64,000 nucleotides of DNA from an uncultured Planctomycetaceae bacterium (lineage in GTDB: Bacteria > Planctomycetota > Planctomycetia > Planctomycetales > Planctomycetaceae): contig CAWFGE010000015.1 of NCBI GenBank assembly GCA_963815195.1, forward strand, positions 320,001 to 384,000, in the 5' to 3' direction. A program made the position numbers and the translations under genes. Shown one piece after another: positions 2,644-30,188 of the stretch (its first letter is position 1; each line of letters opens with the position of its first letter). Under the pieces are notes generated by a model. It saw only the letters and a program-made list of their open reading frames with translations. It was not told the DNA's origin and searched no databases.

Positions 2644-4512
2644 TCATCGAAATGCCACGGAGACGGGTTCACTTAACGTTTGCTGAGAAATGACGATATT
2701 GGTCGCCTTCTTATATTCCATTGGATTAGCGGTCGCCGCTTGTTGAATTGAAGTTTCGACAATGTCTATTAGGAGTTTGCGGATGATGCGGCCGCCTTCT
2801 TGGCCGTTGACGTCTTCATTGAGTTGATGGCCACGTTGACCGACCCGTTGGATGAGTGTATCCGGTACAATAAGATTCTTCTCGCGTTTTCGTTTCCAAG
2901 TCATCTTCATCTTTTCGATTTGTAGCTGAGCGATGCCGATCATGGCGGCTTCGTTCAAAGGGCGGAATATCAGGATTCGTGAAATTCTCGCCAGGAATTG
3001 TGGCGCAAAAACCGGCTGGCTGGAGCGTTCGTGGCGGATGCGGGAGAGGGATTGTTTCACCCGGCTGATGATCTCCTCGTCGCTTTTGCCTTGTCGACTC
3101 ATTTGGGCGATTTGCTGGTCGCCCGCGTTGGTAGTCAGGATAAAAATCGCCCGGTCCGCGTGGGCCTTGACGCCGCGTTGATCAACCAGCCAGCCCTCAT
3201 CGAACAGGTTGAGGAACGGTTTCCAGACGTTGGGGTGGGCTTTTTCCGCTTCATCTAGCAAGAAAACTGAGTAGGGGTCCGCATTGAGTTCGTTGACCAG
3301 CCGACCGCCTTGGTCGTGGCCCACGTAACCCGGTGGCACGCCGATGATCCCTGAGACTGTATGTGGTTCGGTGAAGTTGCCCATCGAGTACACTTGTAAT
3401 CGCCCCGTGGCCGAGTACAACCGGGCCAAGGCTTTCGCCAGTTCCGTTTTGCCCACGCCCGTCATTCCGGCGAACAGGAGCACCGACGCCGGGCGGTCCG
3501 GTTCGGTCAGGCCGGCTTTGATCAGCTTGAGTTCGGTGGCCACGACCTCGACCGCCTCCGTTTGGCCCACGACCGAAGCTGTTAAAGCCGCTTCGTAATC
3601 TGTGCTTTTGGTCTCTCCCGAAAGGGTTTCTTTCGGAATCCCGGTACGGTCCGAGATTACTTGCAACAGATCTCTAACTTCAATCGCTTCCCGAACAATA
3701 TTCAACTGTTGTCGCTCAAAGCGAATATCTTCGCAAATCGTTTCGAGCACGCGGATTGACTTGGCGGGATGGCATTCATTCAGGATGAAACTTGACGACA
3801 GTGTCATAACTCGTTTTACGACATCATCATCGATTGCCACTTTATACTCTTGCGAAAGTAACCTCGCGTGATGCCGGGTAATCTCCAGTGCAAGATCTTC
3901 AGACGGTTCTTCGACTTCGATTTTGGTAAACTGGTCGAGCATTCCGGCATCGCCGCTGATCAGGTCATCATAGTCCCACTTATTCAGAATACCGACAACG
4001 TGGAGCCCCGGTCGTTCAGCCGCTGATCGTATCAGTGGCTTATTGCTGCCTCCTTGAGGCCTTCTCAGCAGTGCATCGAAACCATCGAGACAAAGGACGA
4101 CCTTTGAACTAGTTTCCCTGGCGACCTCGAGTATTGTCTCCAAACAGGCTCGGCTATCTTCGGGACCGACATTTTTGCAATCCATCCACAAGAACTGATG
4201 ATCCTTGAGAAACGGATAACCTCCCAATGCAACCCTCCGTGCGAATTCTCGGACAGTCGTTGTCTTCCCAACACCACGATTCCCCGTAATCAGTAAATGG
4301 GGGGCGGACCGATGGTGTAGCCCGCGGGCAAACGGTTTAAAAATCGGATCACATTGTCCGTCGGAAGGATAAGGTTCATTGAATTTCGTGGGAACAAGTT
4401 TGCCCGCATCAAGTGTCAGGTTTTGTAACGGCAGTATGTTGGCTAAGAACTGCCATGCGGTACCATAACGGGGTTCGTCAAAGGAGGCTGAATGAGGATT
4501 CGTTTGGGACAT
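2644..4512 (-). CDS. Clp/Hsp100-family double AAA+ ATPase (ClpA/ClpV-like), atypical
   Basis: NBD1 Walker A GNRGVGKTT with degenerate Walker B CLDGF. NBD2 GMTGVGKT, pore loop PPGYVG, Walker B FLLDEAEKAHP, IFILTTN. No Clp N-domain or ClpB coiled coil seen. Confidence 0.85.
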   Translation of the reverse strand: MSQTNPHSASFDEPRYGTAWQFLANILPLQNLTLDAGKLVPTKFNEPYPSDGQCDPIFKPFARGLHHRSAPHLLITGNRGVGKTTTVREFARRVALGGYPFLKDHQFLWMDCKNVGPEDSRACLETILEVARETSSKVVLCLDGFDALLRRPQGGSNKPLIRSAAERPGLHVVGILNKWDYDDLISGDAGMLDQFTKIEVEEPSEDLALEITRHHARLLSQEYKVAIDDDVVKRVMTLSSSFILNECHPAKSIRVLETICEDIRFERQQLNIVREAIEVRDLLQVISDRTGIPKETLSGETKSTDYEAALTASVVGQTEAVEVVATELKLIKAGLTEPDRPASVLLFAGMTGVGKTELAKALARLYSATGRLQVYSMGNFTEPHTVSGIIGVPPGYVGHDQGGRLVNELNADPYSVFLLDEAEKAHPNVWKPFLNLFDEGWLVDQRGVKAHADRAIFILTTNAGDQQIAQMSRQGKSDEEIISRVKQSLSRIRHERSSQPVFAPQFLARISRILIFRPLNEAAMIGIAQLQIEKMKMTWKRKREKNLIVPDTLIQRVGQRGHQLNEDVNGQEGGRIIRKLLIDIVETSIQQAATANPMEYKKATNIVISQQTLSEPVSVAFR

Positions 4513-4643
4513 AGTAAAAACGACCTGTGCTGCTTATCGATATCTAACCTGCTCCAGGAATTTCAACCAAGGACAATGAGGGTTTAGGTGATTTGCGATC
4601 AGCATGGTCGAGATCCATCCAAACCCGACTTCCACGCTCGTTT

Positions 4644-6008
4644 TCAATAGATCCCACACTCAGGCAACAACTTTTGCAGTCGTTCACGACTACTCAGGGA
4701 AATATTGGTTCGTCCAAGATAGAGTTCTCGCAGAGTCGTCATGGTGGCCAGATCATCAATGCACTTATCTGTTACCTTGTTGCCCCATAGACTGAGGGTC
4801 TTCAGGTTTTTGAGCTTTGCAATGTGCTTCACCCCGGCATCCGAAATCGAGACACGTGGAATCCAAAGGTTAGAAAGATGTTGCAGTTTGCCGATGCCCT
4901 CAAAACTGTCATCAGTCAACTCTTTACAGGATCCTAGACTGAGAGATTGCAATTCTCGCAAATTCGACAGCGGGGGTAAATTAGTCAACCGCGTACACCC
5001 CGTGAGGTTTAGGGTCCTCAACTGCGGGAGTTTCGCCAGCGATCGCATATCGGAAAGTCGTTCGCATTCTGTTAATTTGAGGGTCCTTAATTGCTGAAGA
5101 TTGGCCAGCGAATGCAACCCATCGTTGGTGACCTTTGCCGCGCCAATGTCCAAATGACGCAGTTTCTCGAGACGGCCAATGCCTTTGAGACCATGGTCCG
5201 ACAGTTGGCTACAGTTGATTTCGAGCGTTTTCAAGTTGGGCAGATTCCCAAGTTTGGAAATTCCCTCATCAGTACACCTGAGAATGCCTGGAATTTTAAG
5301 TATTCTTAGGCCATCTAACTTGGCAACGCACGCCAAGCCTTCGTCGTTGACACTCTCAGGCAAAATCAGAATCGAAAGCTTTTGGAACTTCTGAGCGTCT
5401 GCGAACCCTGTTCCTTTCACCAAATACTGCCCAGACCCCAGGTCTAACGCTTTGAGATTTTTCAATTCCCCAAGTTTGGAAATTCCCTCGTCGGTCACAC
5501 GAGAATAATCCAAATCCAACGATTCTAGGGACTTCAGCGTGGCCAGACCGGTCATGTGGTGATCTTCCAGATACGCTTGGATTCGAAGATGTTTCAGGTT
5601 TTTGAACTGCCAGACTTGCTCAATGATTTTCTTGCCGGACTGCCCTCCCAAGTCCAACGACAAATTCGTTAAGTTCTCAAGATGCAGAAACGGTGTGAGA
5701 TCCGCCCCAGTGGGGGTCGGGTTAACCGGGAGATTGGAATAAAACATCTCTCGACTCAGGGTTAGTCCGCACGGAACTGGAATGCTAGGCAATTTGCGTG
5801 TAGGAGCGCTGCTGAAATGAAATCCTGGCACTTGACCGGGAAGATCGGAGTCTACTCCAACCCCATTCCAACCTCGGACCATTCGCGGAATCCCCCCGGC
5901 TTCCACATATTCTTGAGTGATTTCCTTGCCAATGGAATCCTCTGCGTCGGCCGAATTACCAATAAGCGCAATAATGGAAAAACAAGCGAAAAAACGAAGA
6001 GTCAACAT
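4644..6008 (-). CDS. Secreted leucine-rich-repeat protein (Planctomycete-type LRR), candidate Rhs immunity/partner protein
   Basis: ATG at 6008 with upstream AAGGAG. Signal peptide MLTLRFFACFSIIALIGNSADA, then repeated LxxLxxLxLxxxxVTDxGL units. Lies 41 bp downstream of the Rhs stop. Confidence 0.85.
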   Translation of the reverse strand: MLTLRFFACFSIIALIGNSADAEDSIGKEITQEYVEAGGIPRMVRGWNGVGVDSDLPGQVPGFHFSSAPTRKLPSIPVPCGLTLSREMFYSNLPVNPTPTGADLTPFLHLENLTNLSLDLGGQSGKKIIEQVWQFKNLKHLRIQAYLEDHHMTGLATLKSLESLDLDYSRVTDEGISKLGELKNLKALDLGSGQYLVKGTGFADAQKFQKLSILILPESVNDEGLACVAKLDGLRILKIPGILRCTDEGISKLGNLPNLKTLEINCSQLSDHGLKGIGRLEKLRHLDIGAAKVTNDGLHSLANLQQLRTLKLTECERLSDMRSLAKLPQLRTLNLTGCTRLTNLPPLSNLRELQSLSLGSCKELTDDSFEGIGKLQHLSNLWIPRVSISDAGVKHIAKLKNLKTLSLWGNKVTDKCIDDLATMTTLRELYLGRTNISLSSRERLQKLLPECGIY

Positions 6009-6049
6009 CTCAAAAAGTCTCCTTTCCAACAATGTCCCCCCGATGGTTT

Positions 6050-9000
6050 TTAAGGTGAACAGGGGGGGCCAAGTGGTCTCTCTGCTACGGCGGGGGGAAT
6101 CTCGGGTTGCGGGAACACGATCGGTCTCTGTGCTATGGCCGGAGGGGGGCCTTGGAGTTTGATTTCATATCTGTAAAACTGCCGCGCGTCTTGAGGGTTT
6201 AAGGCACTTGGGCCTATAACCCTGTCAACCGTTGCATAGAGACCGTTAGCACTACTATTAATCTGCCTCGTGATTTGGCATATAATATGACCTCTGCTCG
6301 TTCTATCGCACCGGTTATTTTCAGGAGGTGGATAAAGGACATATACGCTGGTCGTATCAATCCCATTTGGATCCTGACTTAAGATACGTATTACTATGTT
6401 GGTAAAGACCGATACTGGTACTCCTTCAGAGCCAATCGATCTTTCAATGTAGAGGATGTCGATGTTTGCTCCACAGACGGCTTCCGGCAACTTGTCTAGA
6501 TCGTCGTTGTTACCTTTGTAAAACCTCGGGATTAGCTCACCTTGCGGATCGGTAGATGTTTTAGTACCCAGTCGAATGTTGAGGTTAATTGCATCTAAGT
6601 GTTTTCCCTCGCCGCCAATATCCACTTTAACCGGTTTTAGTGTATAGCCCGACTCATCCATTTCCGCTTGCCAAGCCTTTTTGATACACTTGAGTGTATC
6701 TTTTCCAATAGCAGCTTCTTCCCCGCTTGGAGTGATTATATTTGATTCCCAACACTCATACGTTGTCGCTCCCGAGGCACGCATGAATTTATTATACGGC
6801 TCAGTAAAGGGGTAATGTGCTCTTGCGTAATCGGACAGTAGTATGGCATCCCTCTCATCTGTGTGAATATACCACCATCCACAACACTCCTTCTTGAACA
6901 CATGCTGGAACTGTTCGCGGCAATCTTCACGCAGCCTTCCCTTGAAATCCTTGAGTTTCTCTTCGAAATCTTCTGCTTCATCCTTGTCTTTGGTGACAAA
7001 GATGTTCCCGCTCGGGTCGATTAAGTTAATCGGGTTATTGGCCACATACCGATAGAGATTCTCTTCATCAGCCCGAATAGGATCTTCGCTGAGAAATCGG
7101 CCCGTTTCCGAGCAAAGTGGACGGGCTCGCAAGAGATAAAGACCACTTTCGGCATCGTGGTAATACCCCATTTCACCAACCCACTGATAAACATTCTCGG
7201 TGCTGCCACTCGATGTCGCCGGCTCGCCGAAGGCGTAGTACGAGTACTCGTCCGTTGCAACTTCGGCTGTATCGGTCAGACTGCGTGTGCTGCCCAGCGC
7301 GTCGTAGTGGTAGTAGCTGGATTCCGTGTCGCGTTTTTGGGAAATGAGATTCCCATAGGCTGCCGGCTCCAAAGTGTATTCGGCATTCGGCAAACCGCCG
7401 TCATCCAATTCCGCGATAATACGGTCTTCATCCCAGACAAATCGGACGAATGCCGTGCCGTCATCCTTGGTGATCCTCTGCTCGGTGTCATCGCGTTTGA
7501 CCAACGCATACGTGTATGTAACTGATTCAGCCGTTGGCTGTTCGACACCGATCAACTTGTTTTCATACGACCAAATTTGCGTTGTCAGGTCACCGTTTGG
7601 TTGTTCGACACTTAGTTGATTGCCGTCGGCATCGTAGCTGAAAGTGGTGAGGGCGCCTATGGAGTCCTGGGTGGCCTTCAGCTGATTCGCCACGTCATAG
7701 GTATACGTCGTCGTAGAACCGTCTTCGACTTTCGTCAATCGATTGCCGACGGGATCATACACGAAAGTATGAGCGTAGGCGTTTATCCCACTTCGCTTCT
7801 CCGTCAGGAGTTGATACGTATCATCGTAGGTCCACGTCACCCGATCGCCATCGGCTTCGACAACACTGGTCCGATTTCCAGCGGCGTTATAGGCGTACCT
7901 AAATGACGAAACAACCGTCAAATCAGCCTTGAAATCGGTCAGGAATGTGAGTTTGCCAGCGGCATTGTAAGTGTATGATGCGCGTGTGCCGTTGGCAAGC
8001 TGTTTCATCGTGCGCCGTCCGGCAGCGTCGTAGCTGTAGGTGGTGAGGTCACCATCGGGGTTGATGAGCGAGTTGATTCTGTCTGCATCGTCGTACGTGT
8101 AGGTCGTCAACCCGCCTTCGGTGTCTGTCAGGGCTCGACGCCGTCCAGCGGCGTCGTAGCTGAATGTGAGAATGCCTGCATTGGGTTCGCTGACCGTCAC
8201 AACGCGGTTGAGGTCGTCGAACGTGCGCGTCCAGTTACCATCGGCTTGGGCAACCGAGGTCGGGTTGCCGTTGGCGTCGTATGTCCACGTGATTCGACTT
8301 GCATCCGGATAGAGCCGCTGTTTGACTCGACCGGCCCCGTCGTATGTGTATGTCGTGCGGTTGCCGCGGGCATCGATCCGCAAAGTCGCGCGTCCAGCGG
8401 CGTCGTAACCGATGGTAACTATGTTGCCCAAGGGATTGATGGTGTGGATTGGGCGTCCAGCGGCGTCGTAAACTGTCGTGGTGCGCTGATCGATGGCGTT
8501 CACGGCAGAAATCAGCCTACCGGCGTCATCATAAAGGGTGGTAGTCCGGTTTGTCAGCGCATCGACTGTTACAATTGTTCTCCCGGATGCATCGTAAACT
8601 GTGGTGGATCGGTTCGCCAACGGATCAACGGAGGCGAGCACACGGCCGGCCAAGTCGTAGACAGTCGTTGTTCGCTCCCCCAAGGGGTTGACGTTTGCAA
8701 TCGACTGCCCAGCCGCGTCATAGAGGAAGGTTGTCCGGTGGGTAAGTGGGTCGATCCTTGCAATCGTTCGGCTCGCGTTGTCGTAAACGGTGGTCGTAAT
8801 CTCCGAGAGCGGGTTTATCGAGGCAATGCCACGTCCGTTAGCGTCATAGGTTGTCGAATTACGCAGACCAAGTGGGTCAATCGTGGCGATCTGTCGTCCC
8901 GCGTCATCGTAAATTGTTGTTGTGGTTTCACTGAGCGGATTGATCTCGGCTACGACCCTGCCTGTAGCGTCGTAACTCGTCGTGTGCCGCAGAGCAAGCG

Positions 9001-12000
9001 GATCGATGCTAGTGATCGTTCGGCTGGCATTGTCGTAAACGGTGGTCATGATTTCCGCAAGAGGGTTTATCGAGGCAATGCTACGTCCAGCCGCATCGTA
9101 AATGGTAGAGGTGGTTTCATTCTCCGGGTTGGTCCTGGCGATGGGCCGACTGGCACCATCGTAGGCAGTGGTCGTTCGCAGGCCCAGGGGATCAATGTTG
9201 GCGATGGATCGGCCCGCCGCATCGTATACCACAGAAGTGGTTTCGTTCTCCGGATTAGTACTGGCGATGGGCCGACCAACGCTATCGTAGGTGGTGGTCG
9301 TTCGCAGTCCCAAAGGGTCGATGCCGGCGATGGTTCGTCCTGCCGCATCGTAAACGGTGGAGGTGGTTTCGTTCTCCGGATTGGTGTTGGCGATGACCCG
9401 GCCTGCACTATCGTAAGCGGTGGTCGTTCTCAGGCCCAGGGGATCAATGCTGGCGATGGTTCGTCCTGCCGCATCGTAAACGGTGGAAGTGGTTTCGTTC
9501 TCCTGATTGGTGTTGGCGATCGGCCGCCCGGTGCTATCATAGGCCGTGGTCGTTCGCAGTCCTAAGGGATCAATGCTGGCAATGGTTCGGCCCGCCGCAT
9601 CGTAAACGGTGGAGGTGGTTTCGTTCTCCGGGTTGGTACTGGCAACGGGCTGACTGGCACTATTGTAGGTGGTGGTCGTTCGCAGTCCCAATGGATCAAT
9701 GCTGGCGATGGTTCGGCCTGCCGCATCGTAAAGGGTGGAAGTGGTTTCGTTCTCCGGATTGGTGTTTGCAATGGGCCGCCCGGTGCTATCGTAGGCGGTG
9801 GTCGCTCGCAATCCTAAGGGATCAATGCTGGCAATGGATCGGCCCGCCGCATCGTAAACGGTGGAGGTGGTTTCGTCCTCCGGATTGGTGCGGGCGATGG
9901 ACCGGCCTGCGCTATCGTAAGCCGTGGTCGTTCGCAGTCCGAGAGGGTCGACGCTGGCAATGGATCGGCCCGCCGCATTGTAGACGGTCGTGTTGCGGTA
10001 GCCAATAGGGTTGATGCGAGCGACGGTTTGACCTGCCGCGTTGTAAATGTTTGTGTTGCGATTTCCCAGCGGATCAATGCTGGCGATGGTTTGGTTGGCA
10101 GCGTTGTAAACTGTCGTGCTGCGGTTGCCCAAGGGGTTAATGTTTGCAGTACGTCTCCCATCCTGGTCGTAGATGGTGGTGTTGCGATCGCCCAATGGAT
10201 TGACACTAGCCACTGTTTGCCCCGCCGTATTGTAGATTGTGGTCGTCCTTTCATTGTTTGGGTTGATTTGGGCGATGGTTCGGCCGCTGGTGTCGTAGAC
10301 CGTGGTGCTGCGATTGCCCAGTGGGTTGATGCTCGCGATGAGTTGGTTTTGGGCGTTATAGACATTCGTGCTGCGGTTGCCCAACGGATTGATTCGGGCG
10401 ATGGGGTTGCTGTTGACATCGTAAATTGTAGTGCTGCGATTGCCCAGTGGATCCACTTGGGCGATGGGGCGGTAGTCCTCATCATAGACTGTCGTGTTGC
10501 GTTCCCCGGCGGGGTTGATCTGGGCGATGGGCAGATTGCTTTCATCATGGATGGTGGTGGTCCGCTGACCGAGTGGGTTGATGCGAGCCACGGGACGATT
10601 GGCCGCGTCATAGACCGTGGTCGTGATGTTCCCGAGGGGATTTTCCTTCCGGCGGAGACGACCTACCGCGTTGTAGGTGTAACTGGTGCGGTTTCCCAGC
10701 GGGTCGATTTTGGCCAAGGGGCGGTTGCCTGGGTTGTAGATTGTCTCGGAGGTGTGGCCGAGGGGGTTGGTGGAGGTCAAGCGGTTGCCGTTGGCATCGT
10801 AGGTGTAGCTCGTGCGGTTCCCGAGCGGATTGATGGACACCGTGGTCAGATTCAGATCGTTTTTGACCAGCGTGGTCCGGGCTCCCAAGGGAGAAACCGT
10901 GCCCTGAAAAACACCGTTGCTGTTGTACGAATAGGTTAGCCGTTCGCCCAAGGGATTGATGCGGGCCACGCGTTGGTCGCTGGCATCATAAACGTAAGTG
11001 ATGGTTTCGTTTTGCGGATTCGTGACCGATTTGAGTTGCCCCTTGGCGTTATAGGTCATGGAACTTCGATTGCCGAGCGGATCGATCTGGGCGATCCGTT
11101 GCCCGTTGCTATCACGAAGCACCGTATACACGTCTTGGCCGGGAAGTTTCAGGCCCGTGAGACGCTTGTTCGCATTGTATGTATAGGTGGAGATTGTCCC
11201 GTTGGGGCGAGTGGCGGTTTTGAGTTGGTTCCCGTCATAGGTGTAACTCGTCCGCCGTCCCATCGCATCTTCCAACGAAGCCACCTGTTTTTTGTCGTTC
11301 CAGGTCAGCTTCGTTTCGTTGCCGAGCGGATCGGTCAGCTTGGTCACGCTGCCGTCCAGGTTGAGTTCCACTTGGGAGGTTTTTCCTTCCGGGTTGGTGA
11401 TGCTCACGGACGACAGATCGAAGGAATAGGTTGTTGTATTTCCCGCCGGGTTCGTGCAAGTCTGCACATTTCCGGAAGCATCGTACGTGATGCTCGAGCG
11501 TCCCCCGTTCGGGTTGATTTGAGTCTGTCAATCGTCCCTGGGCATCGTATTCGTATTCCGTGACGCACATCTCTGGCCCGGTGATCTTGCTAAGGTTGTC
11601 CCCATCGTACTCAAAGGTTGTTTCGCGTCCGCCGGGTTCGGTGATTTTGGTCAATCGTCCTGCTTCATCGTAGGTGAAGGTCGTGGTTTCCCCGGCGGGA
11701 TTTGTGATTTGCGTAATATTGTGATTGGCGTCGGTCGTCACATTCCAGGTCGCACCCGCCCCATTGGTGAAGGAAGATAACAAACCCAGGCTGTCTGTTT
11801 GCGTGTAATGAAACTCGTTGCCGTCATCATCGGTTTCCGTCCAACCAGGCGGGCTTGTCGAATGAGTGAGTTCGCCCGGAGCGCCATCGGGCCGCACGTA
11901 TTCTCCTGAGTTTTCATCCCATTCGTAGCAGTAGACCTCGCCGGTTCCCAGGAAAAGAATGACATTCCCATTGTCGAGTTCTTCGACATACCGCTCAAAC

Positions 12001-13160
12001 GATCCCGTCCAACCGCCGGGTTCGGAGGATTGGGAATTGTAAAACAGCCCCAAGTCGGGAGTGAAACTGGCCCCGGTCGGCAGCCCGTACCCGGCACTGA
12101 CCGCCCCGGTCCCCACATCGACCCAGAGATTGCCGCACCGTCCCAGATTCCGGATCGAATCCAATTGATCGTCCGAGGTATCCGCCGGAGGCAGACATTG
12201 CGTGTCGGCTGAGGTTTCGCTCTCCAGCGAGATCAACGGCGGCGGCTCGCAGGTGATGCCATCGTCACATCCGCAACTGCCCTCCGATTGGGTCGAGTCA
12301 CCGTCGGCTTCCGAATCGCAACTCGAACATGAGGTGGTACAAGAGTCGGTAGGCGTTTCAGGCAGTCGGCACGAACTGCCGGGACGCCTTGGCCCCGTCG
12401 ATTGGCACAACTCGACAAGACTGGACTCACTGCTGGCCGACGATTCGCTGCTGGAGGACGACGAACTGCTTGACGAGGAGGCACTGCTCGGGGAACTCTC
12501 CGAGGACGAACTACTGGACGAGGAGAGGCTGCTCGCGGAGGATGCGCTGCTCGCCGAACTGGCTGACGATTCGCTGCTTGAGGAAGATAAACTGCTCGGG
12601 GAACTCTCCGAAGAGGAACTGCTTGCCGAGGACTGGCTACTTTCCGAGGATGCACTGCTCGGGGAACTCTCCGAGGACTCACTGCTTGCGGAGCTTTCCG
12701 AAGACAAACTGCTTTCCGAGGATTCACTGCTTGCGGAGCTTTCCGAAGACAAACTGCTTTCCGAGGATTCACTGCTTGCGGAGCTTTCCGAGGATTCGCT
12801 GCTTGCGGAGGAGGGGCTGCTTTCCGAGGATTCACTGCTCGGGGAACTCTCCGAGGATTCACTGCTGGGAGAGCTTTCCGAAGAGAGGCTACTCGCGGAG
12901 GACGCGCTGCTCGCCGAACTGGCCGACGATTCGCTGCTCGGGGAAGACGAACTGCTGGGAGAGCTTTCCGAAGAGAGGCTGCTCTCAGAACTGGCCGACG
13001 ATTCGCTGCTGTTTGAGGACCGACTGCTCGCCGAACTTTCCGAAGAGAAACTGCTTGCGGAAGATTCGCTGCTGGGAGAGCTTTCCGAAGATTCACTGCT
13101 GGGAGAGCTTTCCGAAGAGAGGCTGTCACCTGACGAGAAGCTACTTTCCGAACTCGGCAT
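6050..13160 (-). CDS. Large Rhs/YD-repeat protein (~2,370 aa) with Ser-rich N-terminus and C-terminal toxin-like domain; one frameshift at ~11525
   Basis: ORFs 11235-13181 and 6050-11467 join at QGRLT/TQINPNGGRSSITYDASGNVQ. Many YD repeats; Rhs-associated core YYHYDALGS...YQWVGEMGYY...RFLSEDP...YRYVANNPINLIDPSG. Confidence 0.9.
9050..9932 (-). repeat. About seven tandem 126-bp (42-aa) near-identical YD double repeats within Rhs
   Basis: Unit TTTAYDSxGRxIAxTNPENETTSTVYDAAGRTIASIDPLGLR, recurring at 126-bp spacing. Confidence 0.85.
12423..13157 (-). repeat. Low-complexity (Ser-Ser-X)n coding repeat, X mostly E/A/P/L/S
   Basis: Translation SSESSPSSESSESSASSASS...; built from 9-bp codon triplets reassorted into 27-39-bp blocks. 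Confidence 0.9.
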
Positions 13161-14027: not shown

Positions 14028-14118
14028 ATGAACGCCGAATAGGTCATTTCATCAATCCTTACAGGAAAAGCAAATCATCAACGACTCGACACCTCACGAA
14101 AAAGTGAGAACCTCTTAG

Positions 14119-15612: not shown

Positions 15613-15617
15613 CTTAG

Positions 15618-17108: not shown

Positions 17109-17293
17109 CTTAGAAACGCGATAGGAATTTGGCAGGTCGCGCAAATCGGAGTCGTGTTGCCACACAAGGGGCACGATTGAAAGGGAATCTATCTTTTGCC
17201 AACGAATTGGCTTTGGCGGCGGGCAAGGATTAGGTCAACTTTGAACAAACCGCATATCTTGTTCCCGTCTATGAGGAAAGAGGAGTCACCACA

Positions 17294-18914: not shown

Positions 18915-21178
18915 ATGAAACGCGACAGCGAAAATCCCAAGCCATTGATTGCATTCGGCCCCAAGGTTCCTGGGGCGGGGTCGTGGGAGTGGTTGGGTGA
19001 AGATCTGGCCCGTGGTCTGTCGGAGACATTTGAAACGGCCACGTTTGGCTACGAGGTGCCGGATTGCGATGTAGTCGTGTTTATCAAGTATCTTCCTCCC
19101 GTTTCGGTTTTGCGGGAGATCTCCGAACGGACCGCCGTTGTCTATTGTCCCGTGGATGTGTATGGCAGTGCGGCCGAAATTGATGCGGATGAGGGTTTGT
19201 CATGGTGCGATCGGATTGTTGTCCATTGCGCAAAACTTGCCAAATACACGCGGTCGTATGCTCCCACCATTTCGATGGATCACCACTTGAAATTCGCGGC
19301 ACCGATCCGAACAGGTTTCGTTGCTGAAGGGCCATTATTATGGGTGGGAGTGCGGACCAATTTGCCGCCCGTGGTTGACTGGTTGGCGAAACAGCGATGG
19401 AAGGATGAGATCTGGATTCTCACCAATCCGGAACAACCGGACGATCTTCACTCCCCAAAGCGTTTGGGGTTGCCGGAGGGGCTCTCATTTCGGTTGGGGG
19501 AATGGACGCCGGAAAGACATGCCAAGTGGATTGCCGAAGCTCGGGCGGTCTTCGACGTCAAGGGCGCGATTTTCGCTCCCGCCACAAGCCGGCGGCCAAA
19601 GCGATGGACTTTCTGGCGTCGGGCCTGCCCTTGGCAATGAACCGCGATTGCAGTTCCGTGGAAGCGATCCAAGGCCTGGGTTTTGAGATTGCGTCCCTTG
19701 ATCACCGTGAGCATTGGCTTTCCGAGGACTATTGGGAACAAACCCGTTCCTTCGCAACACCATTAAGAGAGCGTTTTTCGCTGTCTCAGATGATCCCCGC
19801 CTGGAGTCAACTCTTACGGGATGTTATTGAAGAAAAGAGAACATCCTCGGTCACCATTCGAAACCAACTTGCGGTTTCATCGCGTTTTGCCCCTGGAAAT
19901 GGAACCACCGTTTTCCCATCGGTCAAGTCCTCACGACGGACGCGGGTGGCGATTGTCAGCCTGCTATTCAATTGGCCGTCCACGGGCGGCGGCACAATTC
20001 ATACGTTGGAAACGGCCCGTTTTTTACAGCGGGCGGGTTATCAAGTGAGCCACTTCTACGTCAAATCCGCCGCGTGGGACGTGGGCCGGATGGACGAACC
20101 GCTCGACTATTCCACACAACCCATTTTGTGGGAACCCTCTGAGGACGGTCTGGCCCAATTGCAGCGCCAATTGCGAAAGGGCATCGAGACGTTCGCTCCG
20201 GATTTTGTCATTCTGACGGATAGTTGGACCATGAAACCGCGTTTGGCCGAAGCGGTCGAGGGTTATCGCTTCTTTCTGCGGTTGGCGGCCCAGGAATGTT
20301 TGTGCCCCCTCAACAATGTGCGAATGCTGGTGGACGACCAGGGTCGCATCAGCCGTTGCCCGCGGCACCAATTGGCCACCCCCCAGATTTGCCGGGATTG
20401 CATAACCGCGCGGGAAGGACTTTCCGGAGTGCTCCATCAACGGGAACGGGAATTGGCCGGTTTCGGCACTCCCGAGTATGATCGGGCACTCCGATGGTCC
20501 TTTTCGACAGCCGAAGCGGTTCTCGTCGTCAATCCGCTGATCGAAGCCATGGTTTCCCCATTCGCCAAACGAACCCGCGTGGTCCCCAGCGGGTTTGACC
20601 CGGATCGCTTTCCCTGGCCATGGCCGGAAGAACAACAGACGCGGGACAACGAGCGCATCAAGATTCTGTTCGCAGGTCTGCCGCAGGAACTGATGAAGGG
20701 CTTTCCGATCCTGCATGCTGCGTGTGAAAGACTGTGGGAAATCCGGCAGGATTTTGAATTGTGGATCACCGACGATCCGGTCGGGCAACGCGATCACTTT
20801 ACAAAGGCCATCGGCTGGCAATCTCAAGCGGACTTACCCCAAGTGCTCCGGCAATCTGACCTGTTGGTGTTTCCGACCGTGGCGGAGGAAGCGCTGGGAC
20901 GCACGGCTGTGGAGGCCATGGCCGTAGGCCGCCCCGTGGTGGCCAGTCGGATCGGCGGGCTTCCCTGGACGATTTCGGATGGGGGGACGGGTCTACTCTT
21001 TGAACCGGGGAACGCGGTCGATTTGGCAGAAAAACTGACCCAACTGCTCGATGATCCGGTACTCCGGGAGCAACTGGGCCGAAATGGACGACAACGGTTT
21101 GAAACCGAATTTGTTTGGAAAGCGATCGTGGATCGGCATTATCGACCGCTTTTGGGAGAGCCGGTCCGAACTGGCTAA
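18915..21178 (+). CDS. Two-domain GT-B glycosyltransferase (C-terminal GT4), frameshift at ~19565
   Basis: N-domain ends with KPAAKAMDFLASGLP. C-domain has PSTGGG, KGFPIL and EEALGRTAVEAMAVGRPVVASRIGG. Confidence 0.8.
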
Positions 21179-21204
21179 ACTCCTTTGAAAGAAGGTTATA
21201 ACGA

Positions 21205-24200
21205 ATGAGCATTCGTCGCATAGCCGTCGTGTTCGATAATACCCGCCGTCCAGAAACTACGGGCTTTTATTGCCGCCGAGCCCTGGCCGAACTTGTCGGT
21301 CTGGGGAAACTTGCGGACGTGGAGCACCTTCTACCGGAGGAACTCGACCGAGTTCAAAGGGGCGAGTTTGATCTGTTTTTGGCGATCGATGATGGCTTGT
21401 CCTATCCGTGGCCCAAGCCACTACGCCCCACCGCATGGTGGGCGATCGATACGCATCTGGATTTCTCGCGGACACTCGAACGGGGTTGGCAGAGTGACTT
21501 TGTGTTTGCCGCTCAACGCAACGGAGCCGAGCGTCTCAGGCGGGAGGGAATTTCCGATGCGGCATGGTTGCCGCTCGCCTGCGACCCGAGGATTCATCAA
21601 CGACATGACGTCCCGCAGCAATTCGACATCGCATTCGTGGGGCATGAAATCCCGGGGGAGAGAACAAGACTGCTCGATCTGATCCGCGATCACTTTCCGA
21701 ATCATTTCATCGGTCAAAAGTACCGGAAGGCGATGGCAGCCACCTATTCCTCGGGCCGGATGGGATTCAACCGCAGCGTGAAAGATGACATCAATATGCG
21801 GGTGTTTGAAGTACCCGCCTGTGGGGCGTTCCTGCTCACGAACGATCTGGCGGAGAACGGTCAATTGGAATTGCTCATCCCCGGGCAACACATCGAGACT
21901 TACGGGTCTGATGAGGAATTGCTGGACAAAGCGCGATTTTATCTCACCAACGATGAGCAGCGAGAGCGAATCGCGCGGGCGGGGTCGTGCACGTCCGATC
22001 TTGCCACACCTACCGGCACCGGATAGACACACTGCTTCATCGGGTGGAAAATTCCGACAAATCCCCGTTCGTTTCCGTGCCGGAGTGTATTCCTTCGAAG
22101 AAAGCCCCTTCCTCCCCGCAAAGGAAAGATCCTCTCTATTTTGAGTTTTCGCGGCCGGAGATTTTGGAGTTGATTCCTCGCACCGCTCAGCGGGTGCTGG
22201 ACGTGGGATGCGGAGCGGGTCGATTGGGAGAAGCTCTCAAACAGAGACAAAACGTCGAGGTGATTGGAATCGAGCGAAATCCCGCGGCAGCCATGAGTGC
22301 GCGGAATGTGTTGGATGCTGTCTCTGAGATCGATCTCACCGAGGATCCGGCAGAGTATCCCTCCGGTCCGTTCGACGTGATTGTGTGCGCGGATATTCTG
22401 GAACATCTTCCGCAACCACGTTCCGCGCTTGAAAGACTGCGAAGCCTTTTGGCTCCGGATGGGATCTTGGTGGCCAGTCTGCCGAATGTGCAGCATCATT
22501 CGGTGGTGCGTTCGCTCCTCGCCGGAAATTTCACGTATGAGCCGGCCGGCATTTTGGACGAGGACCACAAGCGATTTTTCACCCGCCGGGAAATGGAAAA
22601 ACTCTTTTACCGTGCCGGGTTGACTGTGGAACATGTCCGGTTTGCCCCGGATGCAGCGCATCAACAGTGGCTATCGGAGGGGCGACCGCCCACGTTGCAG
22701 TTGGGATCGCTCCAGATCCAAAGCGAAAGCCCTGACGAGATTGAACCGTTTTATGTTTACCAGTATTTGCTGGTTGCAAGACCAACTCCACCGCCGGCGT
22801 GGGGCCTGACTTCGATCATCCTGGTCACCCATAATCAATGGGACTACACGCGGCTGTGCCTGGAAAGCTTGCGGTTTGTCACCGATGAACCCTATGAACT
22901 GATTGTCGTCGACAATGCCTCCACGGATCAGACGTTGCCTTGGCTCCGCTCCCAGCCGGACATCCGCTTGATCGAGAACCCGGAGAATCGCGGCTATCCG
23001 GCGGCGGTCAACCAGGGTCTGGCCGTTGCCCAGGGGAAACAAATCCTCCTGCTCAATAACGATACCCTGCTGACAACGGGCTGGCTCGGGCGATTATTGG
23101 AAGCCCTGCATTGCGATTCCCGGATCGGGTTGGCCGGGCCGTGTTCCAATCACGTGAGCGGTCCTCAACAGATTGCCGTCAACTACCAGAGCATCACAGA
23201 ACTCGATGGATTCGCCTGGGATTACACCCGCCGCCAAGCAGTTCGGTCGATGGAGACCAATCGACTTGTGGGATTTTGTTTGCTGATCCGTCGTGAAGTC
23301 GTCGAGCGCATCGGCACGCTGGATGAGCGGTTTGGCATCGGATGCTACGAAGACGATGATTTTTGCCGCCGAGCGATTCAAGCCGGGTTCCGTTGCGTGA
23401 TCGCCCAGGACGCTTTCGTGCATCACTTCGGCAGCCGGACATTTTTGGGAAGCGGGCAGGATCTGGGTCAAATTCTCGAAGCCAACCAAAAAATCTATGA
23501 TGCGAAATGGGAAACCGATTCTCGGCATTCTGCCTCATTGGAACGGGAAGTCTCACATGATCGCCCCCGATTGTCCCTGTGCATGATTGTGCGCGACAAC
23601 GAACAGACGATCCGTCCCTGTTTGGAGAGCATCCGGCCTTGGGTGGATGAGATGATCGTTGTCGATACCGGTTCGACCGATCGCACCCCGAAAATTTGCG
23701 AGGAATTGGGAGCCCGTGTGGAGCATTTTCCCTGGTGCGACGACTTTTCTGCCGCCCGCAACGAATCGCTCCAGTACGCCTCAGGGGAGTGGATTTTCTG
23801 GATGGATTCGGATGACACGATTCCCGTCGAATGCGGACGGAAATTGCGCGAACTCGCCGATGGAGACCACTCCCTGGAGATCTCGGGCTACGTGATGCAG
23901 GTCCATTGCCCTTCCGCCCCAAATACGAGCCCGCAGGATGTCACCATCGTGGATCATGTGAAACTCTTCCGCAACCGCCCCGAATTGCGGTTCGAACATC
24001 GCATCCATGAACAGATCCTGCCCGCCATTCGCCGGAGGGGTGGGAAGGTCGAGTTTACCGACATCTTCGTGGTGCACTCGGGATCTGAGCACACGGAAGA
24101 AGCCCATCAGCGAAAACTGGAACGGGATTTTCGCATTTTGAGATTGGACCTTGCGGAGCGGCCCAATCATCCGTTCGTGCTGTTTAATTTGGGTATGACC

Positions 24201-25199
24201 CATGCGGATGCGGGAAACCATGAGGAGGCGGTCGGCTGTCTGCAGAAGTCCATTGAGGTTTCCTCGCCTGGAGATTCTCATTTGCACAAAGCCTACTCGC
24301 TTTTGGTCGGTTCGCTGACCCGACTGGAGCAGTGGGAGGAGGCCGAATCCCAATGCCGCAGAGGACTCGAGCTGTTTCCCCAGGATACGGAATTATGGTT
24401 CCGCTTCGGGATTGTGCTGCATCATTTGGGGCAGCTTTCGGAGGCGGTCCAAGCCTATCAACGGGTCCTTCATCCCCCAGAGGATCGCTATTTCAATAGC
24501 ATGGATGCCGGGATCGCGAACTACAAAACCCGTCACAATCTTGCACTCGTTTATCAAGAAATGGAAGACTGGTCACGCGCTGAAGCGGAGTGGCGACGGG
24601 TTGTTGCGGATCAACCGACCTATCCCGCTGCTTGGGAGGCGTTGGGTGAACTCCTCTTGAAAACGGGGCGAATGGAGGAGGCGGTACAAATCGGACACGC
24701 CCTGTCCCAACATCCCCGGCTTTTGGACATTGGAACCATGCTGGAGGCAGAACTTTCGGTGCAGCGAGGCGAGGCGGCGGCCGCAGCCGAAATATTAATG
24801 CGGGCGTATGAACGCCGGAGCGATGTGAACGTCTTGCAGAAACTCTGTCGGATTCAGTTTGAATGTTTGGGCCCACTTGCCGCGGAAACGAGCCTGAGCA
24901 AATTGGCTGAACGGGTTCCCGATGATGCTTCCGTTTGGCACAACCTGGGTACCATTCGTCGTCTGCAAGGGCGATTACCGGAAGCCATTGAGAACTACGA
25001 ACGTTCGGTAAAACTACGTGCGCACTCGCCGGACACCCTCGTCGAATTGGCTTCGGCACTTTACGAGCATGGCGGTTTGGATCAAGCCATCATTGCTTGT
25101 AAAAAAGCACTTGAACATTCTGTCAGCCACGCAGGAGCAAAACGACTTCTCCGACAATTGGAAAACACCACGGCAGAAGAAGAGAACTCGTCCGATTAG
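21205..25199 (+). CDS. Multidomain glycosyltransferase: CgeB-like GT-B + SAM methyltransferase + GT2 + GT2 + TPR (frameshift at ~21985)
   Basis: NMRVFEVPACGAFLLT...RIARAG/HTYRHR; VLDVGCGAG; SIILVTHN...LLNND...EDDDFC; SLCMIVRDNE...DDFSAARN...WMDSDD...IHEQ; TPR helices at the C-terminus. Confidence 0.85.
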
Positions 25200-25361: not shown

Positions 25362-26087
25362 TTAAAGTTGAATATCGTGGTTTTCCCGTCCGCAGACCGA
25401 GTGTCGGATGCGAAAGAGATTCGGAAGCTCCACCCGTCTCCAACCGCTTGAGGTGAAGTTTCGGATCGTTTTGCGAAAGGCCACATCGCAGGTGCAGCGT
25501 TTCCAGCGAGCGGCCGGCCGTTGCCAACGGGTGTCGCGACAATATCCACCCAGGCGGGCGATCGTCCCACGCACAATCTGGACGCCTCCGATAGCTCTCG
25601 GATAGCGGATGGGTTCGAAGTCCTCAGGTGTCACATCGATGATTCGAGGTGAGCAAGGATCAAGTCGTTCAATGGCGGAATCACCCGACTGATGCGTCTT
25701 CGAAGTCCAGGCGGCGTTGGGAAAGAGCAAATCCTCGGTGGTGGTATCGACCGCAGCTTTAACTGCATCCAAGGTGCCTTCTCGAAAGCACAGATCGCAG
25801 TCGGCAAACCATAACCAATCGGCCCCGGTTTCTTGCGTTGCCAGTTCTCGGCCGATCGCGCGACGAAATAACTGGTTCTTGGGCAGCACGCGAGGATGCC
25901 AGATGATCGATGGAATTTGGTGTGACCGAAAGTAATTCAACACCGCGGTTGTTTCCGGATCCTCATCCGAATAAAACACCGTCATTTTGATGGAGACGTT
26001 TCGCGGAGGAAAGAGAACCAGCGAACTGAGTTGATACGTCAATAATCGCGAGTAACGCCAACAGTGGCTGACAATTTCGAGTTGCAT
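25362..26087 (-). CDS. Putative GT-A glycosyltransferase
   Basis: Start MQLEIVSHCW; RAIGRE...DWLWFADCD (DxD); glycan-cluster context. Confidence 0.65.
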   Translation of the reverse strand: MQLEIVSHCWRYSRLLTYQLSSLVLFPPRNVSIKMTVFYSDEDPETTAVLNYFRSHQIPSIIWHPRVLPKNQLFRRAIGRELATQETGADWLWFADCDLCFREGTLDAVKAAVDTTTEDLLFPNAAWTSKTHQSGDSAIERLDPCSPRIIDVTPEDFEPIRYPRAIGGVQIVRGTIARLGGYCRDTRWQRPAARWKRCTCDVAFRKTIRNFTSSGWRRVELPNLFRIRHSVCGRENHDIQL

Positions 26088-26139: not shown

Positions 26140-28790
26140 TCATTCCTCAAGAAGCAAATTTGCTTTAAGGTGCTTACGGAGTCGTCCGTCTCCGGCGGGC
26201 GTCCAAGCCTGGATGTGGCCCAAATTTTGGTCATAGACGCTTCGATACTGTTCAATCCAACGATAACCGGACGGTGCTTCACCGTTGCGATTCAGATGGC
26301 GACCCCCATGAAAGTGAATAATTCGAACGTCGGGGGCGTTCGGATTGCCGTAGCGGGGAGAGCAATTGAACCGACCATCGAGAATGACATGGGGGTAATG
26401 AGGGACCAAGAGCTGCATGGCCAATTCATCAGGGATGAAATGTTTCCGACCTTCCTCGGCGACTTGAGACCAGCGTTCGAAAATCCGAGAGTGTCTCGTA
26501 AAGGCGAATACCCCGGTATTGATCGCCGGTCCGAAGGCGAGGGCGGAGGGGACGAGGTCGGGATGGGTGTCCAGCCAGGATCGAATCCGTTTGCTGATCG
26601 TGCGGCCTTGCGATTTCCAGTTGCAAAATTGTGTTGCCATCACGTATTCGGGATTCGGAAATTCCCAAAGCGGAGATAGATCTCCCGCGATGAGCGTATC
26701 GCAATCCAAGTAAACTGTTTCCTCGTAGGGCGTATAATCGCGAAGGCGAGTTTTGAACAAGTAAGACCCTTTCTTGCCGCCCTTGGTTTGGCTGGCATCC
26801 AGCGGGGTGTGTGAGAGATTCAGTGCGCATCGGTTTGAATATGTTCGCAGATGCGGCTCGCTGCTTGATCCGTGGAAACGACGGTGACGGGACCTTCATA
26901 GTATTTTCTGAGGGACGACAAAGAGACCAGAAACCGCACGGCATGCTTGTCACCGGAGAGAAAATACAAGACCCCGCGCATGCCAGAGGCTCGTGGTGAT
27001 GCCGAAGACCGGGAGGCTTCCGCAGGGAGAGAATTTGTTGATGGCTCCTTCAAGAGTTCACGGCAAGTCCTCGCGAGGCGGCGAAATCGGGAAACGTGCT
27101 TCCACCCGCGATGCGACATTTTAGCCCGGACAAAGTAGTCGTTCCGGCGGGCAGCGCAATAAAAAAGGTAGGTGTCCTGCGATGGGACGGGGAGTCGACC
27201 GGGGGCATAGGCCGCCACGGTTTTCGTCCACTGCGTGTTACCGAAGAAACACCAAGAAATAATCCGCGGATGTCGAACGAGACGGCTTCCCGGTTCGTAA
27301 GAAATCGTCAAGCGAGGGTGCTCTTGGAGTTCCGGGACGCTGTCACCCCAATCATCCAATTTCGCCAACGCGTCCGCAGGTTTGGTATAGCCCCAGGGGC
27401 TGGCAATGAAGGCGGGTAGGCGACCTTTGTCATCCGGTGCAAACCAAGCGGGATCAATCCAATCGGATTCCTCCATCGCCACGACGTCGCAATCCAGTTT
27501 CAAGTACCAAGCGGTTTGGATTTCTTCGGCGGCCACCCGAACAAAGGCCGTCAACATTTGCTCGCGTTGAGACTCCGCCTCCGGGAGGCACCATGGGACA
27601 AAGCGAATGTTCGAATGCTGGGAAAGTTTTTCAAGCGGCGTATTCATGGGATCAAATCGATGATCGTGGATGACCACCACGGGAATCCGCTTGATCTCAG
27701 GACGAAACTTCAACCACGTGTCCCAAGTCAATGCCAATTGCTTGCTGGAGTTGTCATCCACAGCAATCAGTAGCGTGAGATTCGCGAGGATCTCTTCGCG
27801 AGGAGGCCCGGAGGGTTTGGGGTTGTTTGGATTTTCCTTCTCCGCATCTTTCAGCCGTTGTTTTCGATCGTACATTCCTGCAGTCAGGATTTGTTGGGGA
27901 ATGATGGCCGTGGCATTGGCCACCGCATCTTCATAGGGAATGTGGGGAAAAACCGTCAAGCCGCTTTTGGGAGTGCAATTGAAGACCTGGAATCCCTCGC
28001 GGTCAAAGTGAGGTTTGAGATGATTTAATCGGACATTGAGGATGCGGTAACTGCTATTATTCCCCCGGACAGCGGCGCGCGAGCGATCCTGGTCGAAAGC
28101 ATAGTTTTGTCGGCCATGAACCATCTTGAAATCGCAGCCTAACAGGTAAACCTGCCTCACGCCCAGATGAAATAGTAATCTCAGCGCGATGTACATCACA
28201 GAACGGGAGCCTTTGTTTCCATAGGCATCCACACGCTCCGAGTGATTCCCCCAATTGAAGGTATCCTCGTACAGCCACTGCTCAGCGCAAAACGCCTCAT
28301 TGCGGCGGTAACCGAAAACCGCCGGCATGTCCCCCACTCGCTCCTGGGAAGGCACGAGTTCCCCTTGGTCGTCTCGCACGATGAATGTTTTCTCCATATG
28401 ACAGAGCGGGACGAACTTGAGAATGCCGGGATCATACCATATGGCGTCCGCGAAGTTGCCTGGATCGTCCACGCTGCACCACAACTGCGGACGGACGACG
28501 GTCGCCGCATTGTTCAGAGCCAATGTCAGGATTCCCCGTTGATTCAATTTGGAAAGATCGTGGTCTTTTAGGGAAGGACCGGAGCACAACAGGAAGGCCG
28601 TGTGGCCTCGGTACATGTCGCCGAGAAAGACATTATGGCCGTCTCGCGTAAACAACATCGGAGGCGTTTGTAAAAACCGCCCGACGGGAAAACCGTCGTG
28701 CTGTTCGCGCACGTGTCGCAGTCGGGCAAAATCTCCCCCGTCACGATTGGGACCGCCTGGGGCACGGCGATAAAGCGGATCAGTGGCCAT
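26140..28790 (-). CDS. Multidomain glycosyltransferase: Maf/DUF115(MptE-like) domain + GT-A domain + GT8-like domain (frameshift at ~26822)
   Basis: AFLLCSGPSL...LALNN...WCSVD...SVMYIALRLLFHLGVRQVYLLGCD; WYLKLDCD; after the frameshift TVYLDCDTL...NTGVF...IIHFHG. Confidence 0.7.
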
Positions 28791-28883
28791 GGTCGTCTCG
28801 TATGAGTTTTTTTGAAGAAGTGAATCAAATGGCGAGGTTTCAATTCCCAAACGAGCGTATGAACCTATAATCAGTAAGTCAAG

Positions 28884-28981
28884 TGTGGTGAACAGAGCAC
28901 ATCACCACATCCCCAAAACACCATTGAAAAGTGTTCGAGTCTGTCTCAAGACCAAATAGAAGATTTGAAATCGGTCTTGAG
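28884..28981. promoter_or_regulatory. Two inverted repeats in a divergent intergenic region (possible operators)
   Basis: TGTGGTGA-N10-TCACCACA (28884-28909) and CTCAAGACC-N19-GGTCTTGAG (28945-28981). Confidence 0.3.
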
Positions 28982-29028
28982 TACCACGGCGAACAATCAG
29001 ATTTCTGATCGTGAAGGAGCCATCGCAC

Positions 29029-29388
29029 GTGTCGCGATATTCAGACATCGTTCTGGACCACTTTTCCAATCCACGCAACTACGGAAAAATCCCCGATGCG
29101 GATTATGTGGGAACGGCCGGCGTTCCCGGCAGAGGACGGTTTCTTGTGCTGTACCTTAAAATGAGTGGGGATCGCATCGGTCAGGTCGGATTCGTGACCC
29201 ACGGGTGCGGCGCGACGATTGCTTCCGGCTCCGTATTGACTGAGCTAATTTCGGATTGTTCGGTGGATGAATGCCGCGAATTGTCCTCGGCGACCCTTCT
29301 AGAGGAACTCCATGGATTGCCTCCCGATAAGGTTTATTGCGCGTCTTTTGCCTTGGCGGCCTTGCGCAACGCGCTCCCAGACGCGTGA
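29029..29388 (+). CDS. IscU/NifU_N-like Fe-S scaffold homolog, degenerate ligands
   Basis: YSDIVLDHFSNPRNYG, GCGATIASGS, GLPPDKVYCA; GTG start with upstream GAAGGAG. Confidence 0.8.
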   Translation: MSRYSDIVLDHFSNPRNYGKIPDADYVGTAGVPGRGRFLVLYLKMSGDRIGQVGFVTHGCGATIASGSVLTELISDCSVDECRELSSATLLEELHGLPPDKVYCASFALAALRNALPDA

Positions 29389-29453
29389 ATCATTAGAGAA
29401 TAAACCGGGGTTTGGATATCCGGATAATGTCCCGCACATGGGAGTCGAATTTG

Positions 29454-30188
29454 ATGAAACGAGCGATTGTTTATGTATTGTTTGGAGACCAGTCCGATCC
29501 AAATTCTCGCGTCCACAAAATCTTGCGCAAAGTTTCGAAAGCCAGTCAGTGGAAAGGGAGTTTGGGGCATCCCATCGTGTTCGTATTTGGCGAAGAGAAC
29601 CTGACAGCCGTTCAATCTCAGGGATTTGAAGCCCGTTTGGTTGACGCTCGACCGCTCGTCCCTCACAACTCGGACCCAGAAATCCGATGCTCGACGTGGA
29701 TCCATAAGCCCTTAGGCTGGTCTGCCGCGCTTCAGGAATTCGATGAGTTGATTGCCTTAGATTGGGATATTCGCCCGGCACGAAGAATTGAATTGGATAA
29801 CTTGTTTGGACGTCTGGGAGAAAAATCCTTTCTCCAGGCAAATCTCCTTCAATACCGGCACGTCAAAGCTCTCTACCGAAAGCAGATGATCGGTTCTATT
29901 TCCAACCCAGCGATCCGGGCGATTCCCTCTGCAGCCTTTGTCTATCTGCGAGGCCACGATGGACAACACGCCATCGAACGCATTCTTCACTTGATGGAGC
30001 GGTTCCCCTCCATGACGGAGGAGCAAGCGATGGCTCGCTTTGTGGATGAACTTTATGGAGGATGGAAAGGAATCGAAAACTGGTGGCAGCATCATGAGCC
30101 ATATTGCTGCGGTATGCCACAACAACGTGAAGCCGTTTCGACCGGTGGCCGCACCCCGCGTGAGAAAGAACATCTTTTCCTTTATTGA
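29454..30188 (+). CDS. Hypothetical protein, possible GT-A glycosyltransferase
   Basis: MKRAIVYVLFG...K...LIALDWDI (DxD after a beta strand); glycan-cluster context. Confidence 0.5.
   Translation: MKRAIVYVLFGDQSDPNSRVHKILRKVSKASQWKGSLGHPIVFVFGEENLTAVQSQGFEARLVDARPLVPHNSDPEIRCSTWIHKPLGWSAALQEFDELIALDWDIRPARRIELDNLFGRLGEKSFLQANLLQYRHVKALYRKQMIGSISNPAIRAIPSAAFVYLRGHDGQHAIERILHLMERFPSMTEEQAMARFVDELYGGWKGIENWWQHHEPYCCGMPQQREAVSTGGRTPREKEHLFLY

Follow-up and report, generated by a model that had tools for sequence, protein, structure and literature searches.

Few bacterial toxins are as widespread as the Rhs proteins, and our literature searches brought up no Rhs described as a glycoprotein encoded together with genes for its glycosylation. 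Here we describe a giant Rhs gene that stands next to a cluster of glycosyltransferase (GT) genes in an uncultured Planctomycetaceae bacterium (genome G000). The window analysed is a stretch of 64,000 nt, G000:C15:320001-384000, to which all positions given without a contig name refer (Table 1). Compared with the Rhs polymorphic toxins, as treated in excerpts of Zhang et al. 2012 (PMC3482391), the locus shares a YD-repeat shell, a DPxG motif, a variable C-terminal domain, a downstream immunity-like gene and orphan cassettes in relatives; leucine-rich repeat (LRR) proteins are among the immunity classes named there. It differs from what these excerpts describe in having no PAAR, VgrG, sheath of a type VI secretion system (T6SS) or signal peptide, in its Ser-/Cys-rich head and in the fixed linkage to protein-glycosylation genes. 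With the serine-rich repeat protein (SRRP) adhesins and their accessory Sec system, as far as the excerpted text of PMC6973325 goes, it has in common a long periodic Ser tract and several co-encoded cytoplasmic GTs; however, a long signal peptide, SecA2/SecY2/Asp, a GtfA/B pair and a wall anchor are missing here, the carrier is a planctomycete Rhs protein and the Ser tract is optional. Mycobacteriophage virions are glycosylated according to an excerpt of PMC12619734, which cites Freeman 2023. There and among the MuF phage toxins (PMC5576092, likewise in excerpt) GT genes or polymorphic toxins lie inside morphogenesis modules, whereas here both come together, the toxin is an Rhs and not a MuF protein, the place is the tail end and not the packaging module, and virion-less islands carry the genes as well.

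Two further comparisons concern single gene products. The Clp ATPase of the window shares with ClpV/TssH and ClpA/B/C the two-ring Hsp100 architecture and an intact second ring with a GYVG pore loop, but it has a degenerate first ring, no N- or M-domain and no ClpP loop, and no T6SS was found in G000. GmaR is the flagellin O-GlcNAc transferase of Listeria, and SunS and ThuS are peptide S-glycosyltransferases. Their arrangement, a GT2 domain followed by TPRs, recurs at the C-terminal end of gD, for which they are the best solved-structure GT matches; here, however, it is fused to three more enzyme domains, scores under the SunS cut-off, and neither a flagellin gene nor a short glycocin precursor gene was recognised in the island. 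The excerpt of PMC3150276 likewise presents GmaR as a GT-TPR flagellar glycosyltransferase. A cassette of this kind was not described in the literature on Rhs proteins with glycosylation, Ser-rich, planctomycete or phage-tail themes, among which few subscription papers were covered, nor in the excerpts of PMC3482391, PMC5576092, 10.64898/2026.07.13.738213 and 10.1101/2024.01.22.576637; the supplements of PMC3482391, which could list such neighbourhoods, were outside the scope. The GT-Rhs cassette is real and conserved, and apparently undescribed in print.

The linkage of the GT cluster to Rhs, proposed in an initial annotation from the window, extends well beyond it. In the main survey of 398 genomes of the order, with the clade of the GT4 gene gB as marker, this clade was found in 52 genomes, the Clp clade in 29 and an Rhs core in 119. 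The Rhs core occurs in 44 of the 52 gB genomes compared with 75 of 346 others, and gB in 20 of the 29 Clp genomes compared with 32 of 369 others. Because kin are not independent in such counts, we put weight on position rather than on co-occurrence. In eight closed genomes all ten gB loci lie 10–21 kb from an Rhs core, while only 0.5–2.2% of each genome is that near to one; conversely, 10 out of 16 Rhs clusters are gB-linked. Among 60 tabulated gB loci the fetched DNA contains an Rhs core at 28, most of the others being short contigs. It is found at all 14 loci that are flanked by 12 kb on either side, and at 16 of 17 when three loci lengthened or added later are included (G137 and G509 have it). 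Together with gB these 60 loci hold gC (52), the GT2-TPR (45), gA (31), an IscU-like gene (16), Clp (11), an LRR gene (4, after Rhs), kdsB and gG/gE/gF (2), and the window's sulfotransferase and gH (1). In a phylum sample of 401 genomes the gB clade was present in 6 of 24 family members and in 1 of 376 others, and this sole out-of-family match, G509, retains the order GT4, gC/gD, IscU-like, Rhs. GT cluster and Rhs thus form a unit that is conserved across the family. An island full of insertion sequences (IS) and duplications, with an IS-interrupted Rhs paralog, could suggest that unrelated genes had gathered by chance on an element in decay. This explanation is largely refuted by the co-localisation counts and very improbable, as the same gene set and order recur at dozens of loci in 25 genera, plus a distant family. 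In a GT4 tree built by a quick method from 58 rows, after exclusion of 2 short ones, the Clp-linked and phage-linked loci were not convincingly clustered beyond shuffles (45 and 37 of 500), therefore we claim no order of events.

The Rhs gene begins with an ATG at 13160, preceded by GGAG, and encodes in this order a Ser tract, a Cys-rich segment, the YD repeats, a DPSG motif (amino acid 1484 of the second open reading frame, ORF) and the C-terminal domain. The (SSX)n start, first estimated at about 245 amino acids (aa), comprises 247 aa with 171 Ser, for which all six codons are in use; 80 of 81 triplets begin with SS in one register, compared with 8 of 82 in each other register. A signal peptide, hydrophobic segment or wall anchor was not found in the protein, which opens directly with the Ser tract. 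The C-terminal domains vary among the Rhs proteins of relatives. For that of the window no relatives were found in Pfam, NCBIfam or by phmmer among 1.84 billion representatives, and Atlas matches were no higher than 0.83. A second Ser-tract Rhs is present in the same island (C15:296156-301405), with 92% identity to the window copy over 3.3 kb. Its region (G000:C15:296156-307388) is inverted, and the first ~0.9 kb of DNA are identical to the window copy; the paralog carries two insertions, a 1.68-kb element and an IS, has a different C-terminal domain and is followed by a HEAT-repeat gene. Further Ser-rich reading frames, putative as genes, occur in G000.

About five GT genes with roughly ten GT domains had been counted initially. 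The former number agrees with the relatives, in which gC/gD, like gA/gB, often forms one gene. As to the domains, seven have a profile match (GT4, Glyco_trans_1_2, two GT2, GT8-like with E 3e-5, GT2-like with E 0.036 and MptE/Maf-like with E 9e-5), and three have none, namely the ORF at 18915, the second domain of the ORF at 26820 and the ORF at 29412. The C-terminal GT2 of gD matches GmaR (E 2e-28), SunS (E 1e-18) and 7msk (E 1e-17) best among solved GTs, and reaches 93 bits (E 1e-26) with the SunS family model TIGR04195, under its cut-off of 350. These matches support the earlier assignment of the GT2-TPR to the protein and peptide glycosyltransferases. No GT contains a strongly hydrophobic 19-residue segment (maximum 1.43). 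For gB a GT-B fold is predicted (pLDDT 91.5), in which four Cys are invariant; we may speculate that the IscU-like protein, which lacks the first Cys in all 18 of 18 aligned copies, serves this Cys motif. Neither gG nor a relative of the sulfotransferase had a solved-structure match. Both methyltransferase domains (PF13578, PF13489) and kdsB, already named in the initial annotation, were recovered, the latter above the NCBIfam cut-off; contig C23 has another kdsB copy, with 68% identity. The sulfotransferase named with them is likely, short of proven: the ORF at 13388-14027 has what we take to be a PAPS-type (3'-phosphoadenosine 5'-phosphosulfate) motif and sub-threshold Pfam matches (E 0.07-0.16). 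Some relatives have other sulfotransferase types, two out of six candidates being confirmed by Pfam. With the counts given above, Clp, kdsB and the window's sulfotransferase, first taken for parts of the system, are to be classed as accessory.

The whole locus is part of a tRNA-integrated island, as had been noticed. The element measures ~80 kb, has its integrase at the tRNA end and runs 46 kb past the left edge of the window; the 3' end of the tRNA-Ser is repeated at C15:273911-273931, the likely other end. The left part contains a serine recombinase, DUF1257, an AAA ATPase, a JAB/ThiF module, an AAA-subtilase pair and many IS besides the second Ser-tract Rhs. Clp, LRR and Rhs are co-directional on the minus strand (2644-13160), and a gap of 227 bp (initially ~230 bp) separates the Rhs start from the divergent ORF at 13388, the first of a series of probable sulfotransferase, two IS copies, methyltransferase, kdsB and GT genes. 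The ORF scan of the island covered all but the transposase-like ORFs and one AAA ORF spanning two loci. In agreement with the initial annotation it yielded no Wzx/Wzy, ABC or polysaccharide export or flagellin genes; virion genes, secA2/secY2/asp and GtfA/B were also absent among the ORFs scanned. No phage morphogenesis operon surrounds the cassette on this island.

The reading which we prefer, and to which we give even chances, is that of a mobile, phage-tail-associated cassette whose GTs glycosylate the variable Rhs head in the cytoplasm, here the Ser repeat. On the window's island no acceptor other than the Ser-tract Rhs is evident, and genomes of other genera also have Rhs heads with an in-frame Ser tract (G213 with 151 aa, G337 with 121+ aa and G093 with two of 40 aa). 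The GT2-TPR would start the glycan by priming Ser (or Cys) in the head; its extension would fall to the GT4, GT2 and Glyco_trans_1_2 domains, and its diversification to accessory genes that can be exchanged, namely methyl-, sulfo- and Maf-like transferases and kdsB. The glycosylated head might then form an exposed stalk or recognition tag, with the Rhs shell holding the C-terminal toxin and the LRR protein providing immunity. Probably the tails of temperate phages, in which the cassette would be the distal module, were either its origin or its captor; islands resembling integrative and conjugative elements, such as that of the window, carry it as well. If this is true, polymorphism would have a second layer, the glycan as well as the toxin tip, polymorphic toxins would be linked to phage virion glycosylation, and Rhs proteins lacking PAAR and a T6SS would have a delivery route. 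Since the cassette exists in closed genomes, it is directly testable.

Several observations weigh against glycosylation of the Rhs head. In a survey of 34 heads from GT- or Clp-linked loci only four have a Ser tract of 100+ aa, one each in G213 and G337 and the other two being G000's own duplicates; three tracts have 24-40 aa, three 9-11 aa, and the remaining 24 heads show none of at least 9 aa. The Ser tract therefore reads as one option of a hypervariable, low-complexity head and not as the hallmark for which it was first taken. At least 7 Cys within the first 400 aa are found in 26 of the 34 heads. Four control heads away from the GT4 clade were taken, one of them unreadable from its start; the three readable ones are all Cys-rich as well, one being preceded by another GT-like ORF, with neighbourhoods considered only as far as fetched. 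A Cys-rich head is therefore independent of the GT4 clade, which weakens it as a mark of the substrates of this clade. Furthermore, G108 C38 has the GT set and no Rhs within 39 kb, and in the window the GT genes point away from Rhs, with IS copies inserted among them. Other acceptors are at hand: a collagen-like tail fibre just upstream of the cassette in G364, tail-like proteins next to the GTs in G207, small Cys-rich beta-barrel proteins between GTs and Rhs at many loci, and, with GmaR-type enzymes acting on flagellin, two Flagellin_N genes of G000 outside the island. The initial annotation had named homologous clusters lacking a Ser-rich protein, or tracking with phage capsid or tail genes, as damaging to its proposal. 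Most of the clusters do lack one, and at five loci phage morphogenesis genes are the neighbours, including in one case the tail fibre just mentioned.

The five loci with phage head or tail genes are those of G196, G207, G364, G374 and G168 C144. In G196 and G207 the cassette directly follows portal, head, neck and tail genes on the same strand, with Rhs last, in whole siphophage-type operons. A terminase and a portal gene are near the cassette in G374 and a terminase fragment in G168 C144, the scan in G364, G374 and G168 C144 comprising 54 selected neighbouring ORFs. IMG/VR has 33 loci with a distant relative of gC (25-38%) and no Rhs match, many of them in apparent head/tail operons as judged by eye, and the gG look-alike clusters are mostly viral. 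Scans of viral contigs with GT4 (single protein and alignment), Clp and gG gave no close relative. The five phage-adjoining loci, the viral gC relatives and gG look-alikes, and the glycosylated virions of mycobacteriophages reported in the excerpt of PMC12619734 would fit a virion-glycosylation module, the true substrates of which are tail fibres, capsid or the small Cys-rich proteins, with Rhs as neighbouring cargo and the GTs of the window's island as leftovers. We consider this unlikely: at most well-flanked loci the ORFs scanned include no virion genes and both GTs and Rhs are retained, the window's island has none either, four of the five frame breaks there seem to stem from the assembly, and the small Cys-rich family was not found in G000. 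This family has a predicted 8-stranded beta-barrel (pLDDT 78), no Pfam family and middling fold matches (best Z 7.3; best viral E 0.013). Its profile did not match the Rhs head of the window and rose above shuffles in only 1 of 37 heads (13.6-14.8 bits, top of 740 shuffles 7.9). Tandem arrays of such proteins, 120-165 aa long and starting with NPxxC, lie between GT genes and Rhs at L189:6815-10626 and L127:16196-18046. An intact tail operon elsewhere in G000 was also considered, and the terminase and head-like matches proved to be remnants. PAAR, VgrG-type, VipB and sheath families (PF05488, PF04717, PF05943, PF04984) were not found in this genome, which is 94.6% complete. In a bolder and rather improbable version of phage carriage, temperate phages of planctomycetes would bear at the tail tip a cargo of Rhs toxins in glycosylated form: Rhs would dock on the tail by its Cys/Ser-rich head, the variable glycan written by the GTs would set target range or self-recognition, and virion-less islands would have kept the module and added a one-ring Clp motor for an alternative deployment.

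Alternatively, the GTs could modify the host surface, that is the lipopolysaccharide/Kdo region, flagellin or envelope proteins, with Rhs as the weapon and the glycan as a shield or kin tag by which the cognate Rhs or phage is kept out or let in. This would explain the tight GT-Rhs linkage with no conserved acceptor on Rhs, and it agrees with kdsB, with an MptE/Maf-like domain in gG whose look-alikes include WaaZ-containing ones, with heptose- and nucleotide-sugar-type genes (GT9) beside some relatives and with the flagellin-domain genes of G000. However, no flippase, polymerase, ligase or membrane GT was found in the island, the core enzyme belongs to the GT2-TPR type that acts on proteins, and kdsB is rare among the gB loci. 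We regard this alternative as possible but doubtful.

The Clp ATPase had been thought dedicated to the system. It is found within 30 kb at only 4 of the 14 well-flanked loci, and named relatives are from Gimesia, Schlesneria and Planctopirus. It scores far under every family cut-off (for the ClpV equivalog TIGR03345, 279 bits compared with 885). Judged against ClpC, N-domain, M-domain and ClpP-docking loop are all missing; ring 1 has an intact Walker A but neither the Walker B Glu nor pore loop nor Arg finger, while ring 2 is intact with its GYVG pore loop. Thus, the first ATPase ring is likely inactive and the second intact. With a longer N-terminus the clade also occurs in Streptomyces and Melainabacteria records (L012-L021), where its partners in a conserved operon are a Ser/Thr kinase, an ORF of 1600-1800 aa and, presumably, judging by an N-terminal motif, a DnaK-like gene. 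This looks like a separate chaperone-based conflict system, and because of it the clade does not appear Rhs-specific. In the cassette, Clp is predicted to be an optional unfoldase that works independently of ClpP and acts on Rhs or on the cargo of Rhs. The LRR protein is a candidate immunity protein by its position.

The initial description of the cluster was incomplete in that two IS copies lie inside it, a second Ser-tract Rhs lies left of the window, and Rhs is split near 11522, with four more frame breaks near 13558, ~19570, 21986 and 26822. The Rhs paralog reads open across the site matching 11522, and near-identical public contigs lack the breaks at 11522 (runs X1, X3), 13558 (X2), 21986 (X1) and 26822 (X1, X2), with single low-depth contigs in each case. 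Because of these contigs, four breaks are probably assembly errors; the one near 19570 lies outside their coverage.

Table 1. Features of the locus and of the adjoining integration module, with positions in the window
Position	Strand	Feature	Remarks
2644..4512	-	Clp/Hsp100 ATPase	distinct clade
4644..6032	-	LRR protein	signal-like hydrophobic segment at N-terminus; immunity protein candidate
6050..13160	-	giant Rhs/YD-repeat gene	split near 11522 in assembly; PF05593 E 6e-157 and 9e-21
6050..7006	-	Rhs C-terminal domain (putative toxin) past DPSG motif	no relatives found
12191..12419	-	Cys-rich segment of Rhs head after Ser tract	
12420..13160	-	(SSX)n serine tract, 247 aa	proposed glycosylation acceptor
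13388..14027	+	probable sulfotransferase	split near 13558
14114..17113	+	DDE_5 transposase IS	two tandem copies within GT cluster
17294..17926	+	methyltransferase	PF13578
17923..18678	-	kdsB, CMP-Kdo synthetase	above NCBIfam cut-off; accessory
18915..21178	+	gA-gB	conserved uncharacterised domain and GT4 with four invariant Cys; cassette core; frame switch near 19570
21205..25199	+	gC-gD	Glyco_trans_1_2, methyltransferase (PF13489), GT2, GmaR/SunS-like GT2-TPR; cassette core
25362..26087	-	gE	GT2-like ORF, weak match; accessory
26140..28787	-	gG-gF	MptE/Maf-like, unassigned and GT8-like domains; accessory; break near 26822
29011..29388	+	degenerate IscU/NifU-N protein	first of three Cys missing
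29412..30188	+	gH	ORF, no GT profile match
30917..31990	+	helix-turn-helix protein	island integration module
32523..33776	+	tyrosine integrase	
33875..33965	-	tRNA-Ser(GGA)	3' end duplicated at C15:273911-273931

Some minor observations concern the surroundings. A transposon unit with an ATPase and a CHC2 zinc-finger gene, in tandem and inverted copies, fills positions 1-2640 and abuts the Clp gene. The DUF1257, AAA ATPase, small ubiquitin-like and JAB-ThiF run of the island (G000:C15:278336-286306) also stands beside the cassette in G093, G050, G132 and G108. In G205 a stand-alone Ser-rich protein with a Cys-rich C-terminal domain (C1:5370839-5371999, minus strand) lies beside a GT2 and 36 kb from a Clp-clade gene. 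A 13-kb satellite-like element with type I restriction-modification genes, primase and integrase occupies G000:C15:260708-273931, a tandem integration at the same att repeat. Outside the island, at 36609-37263, a 214-bp tandem repeat is present three times with 96% match, and a related stretch exists on contig C18.

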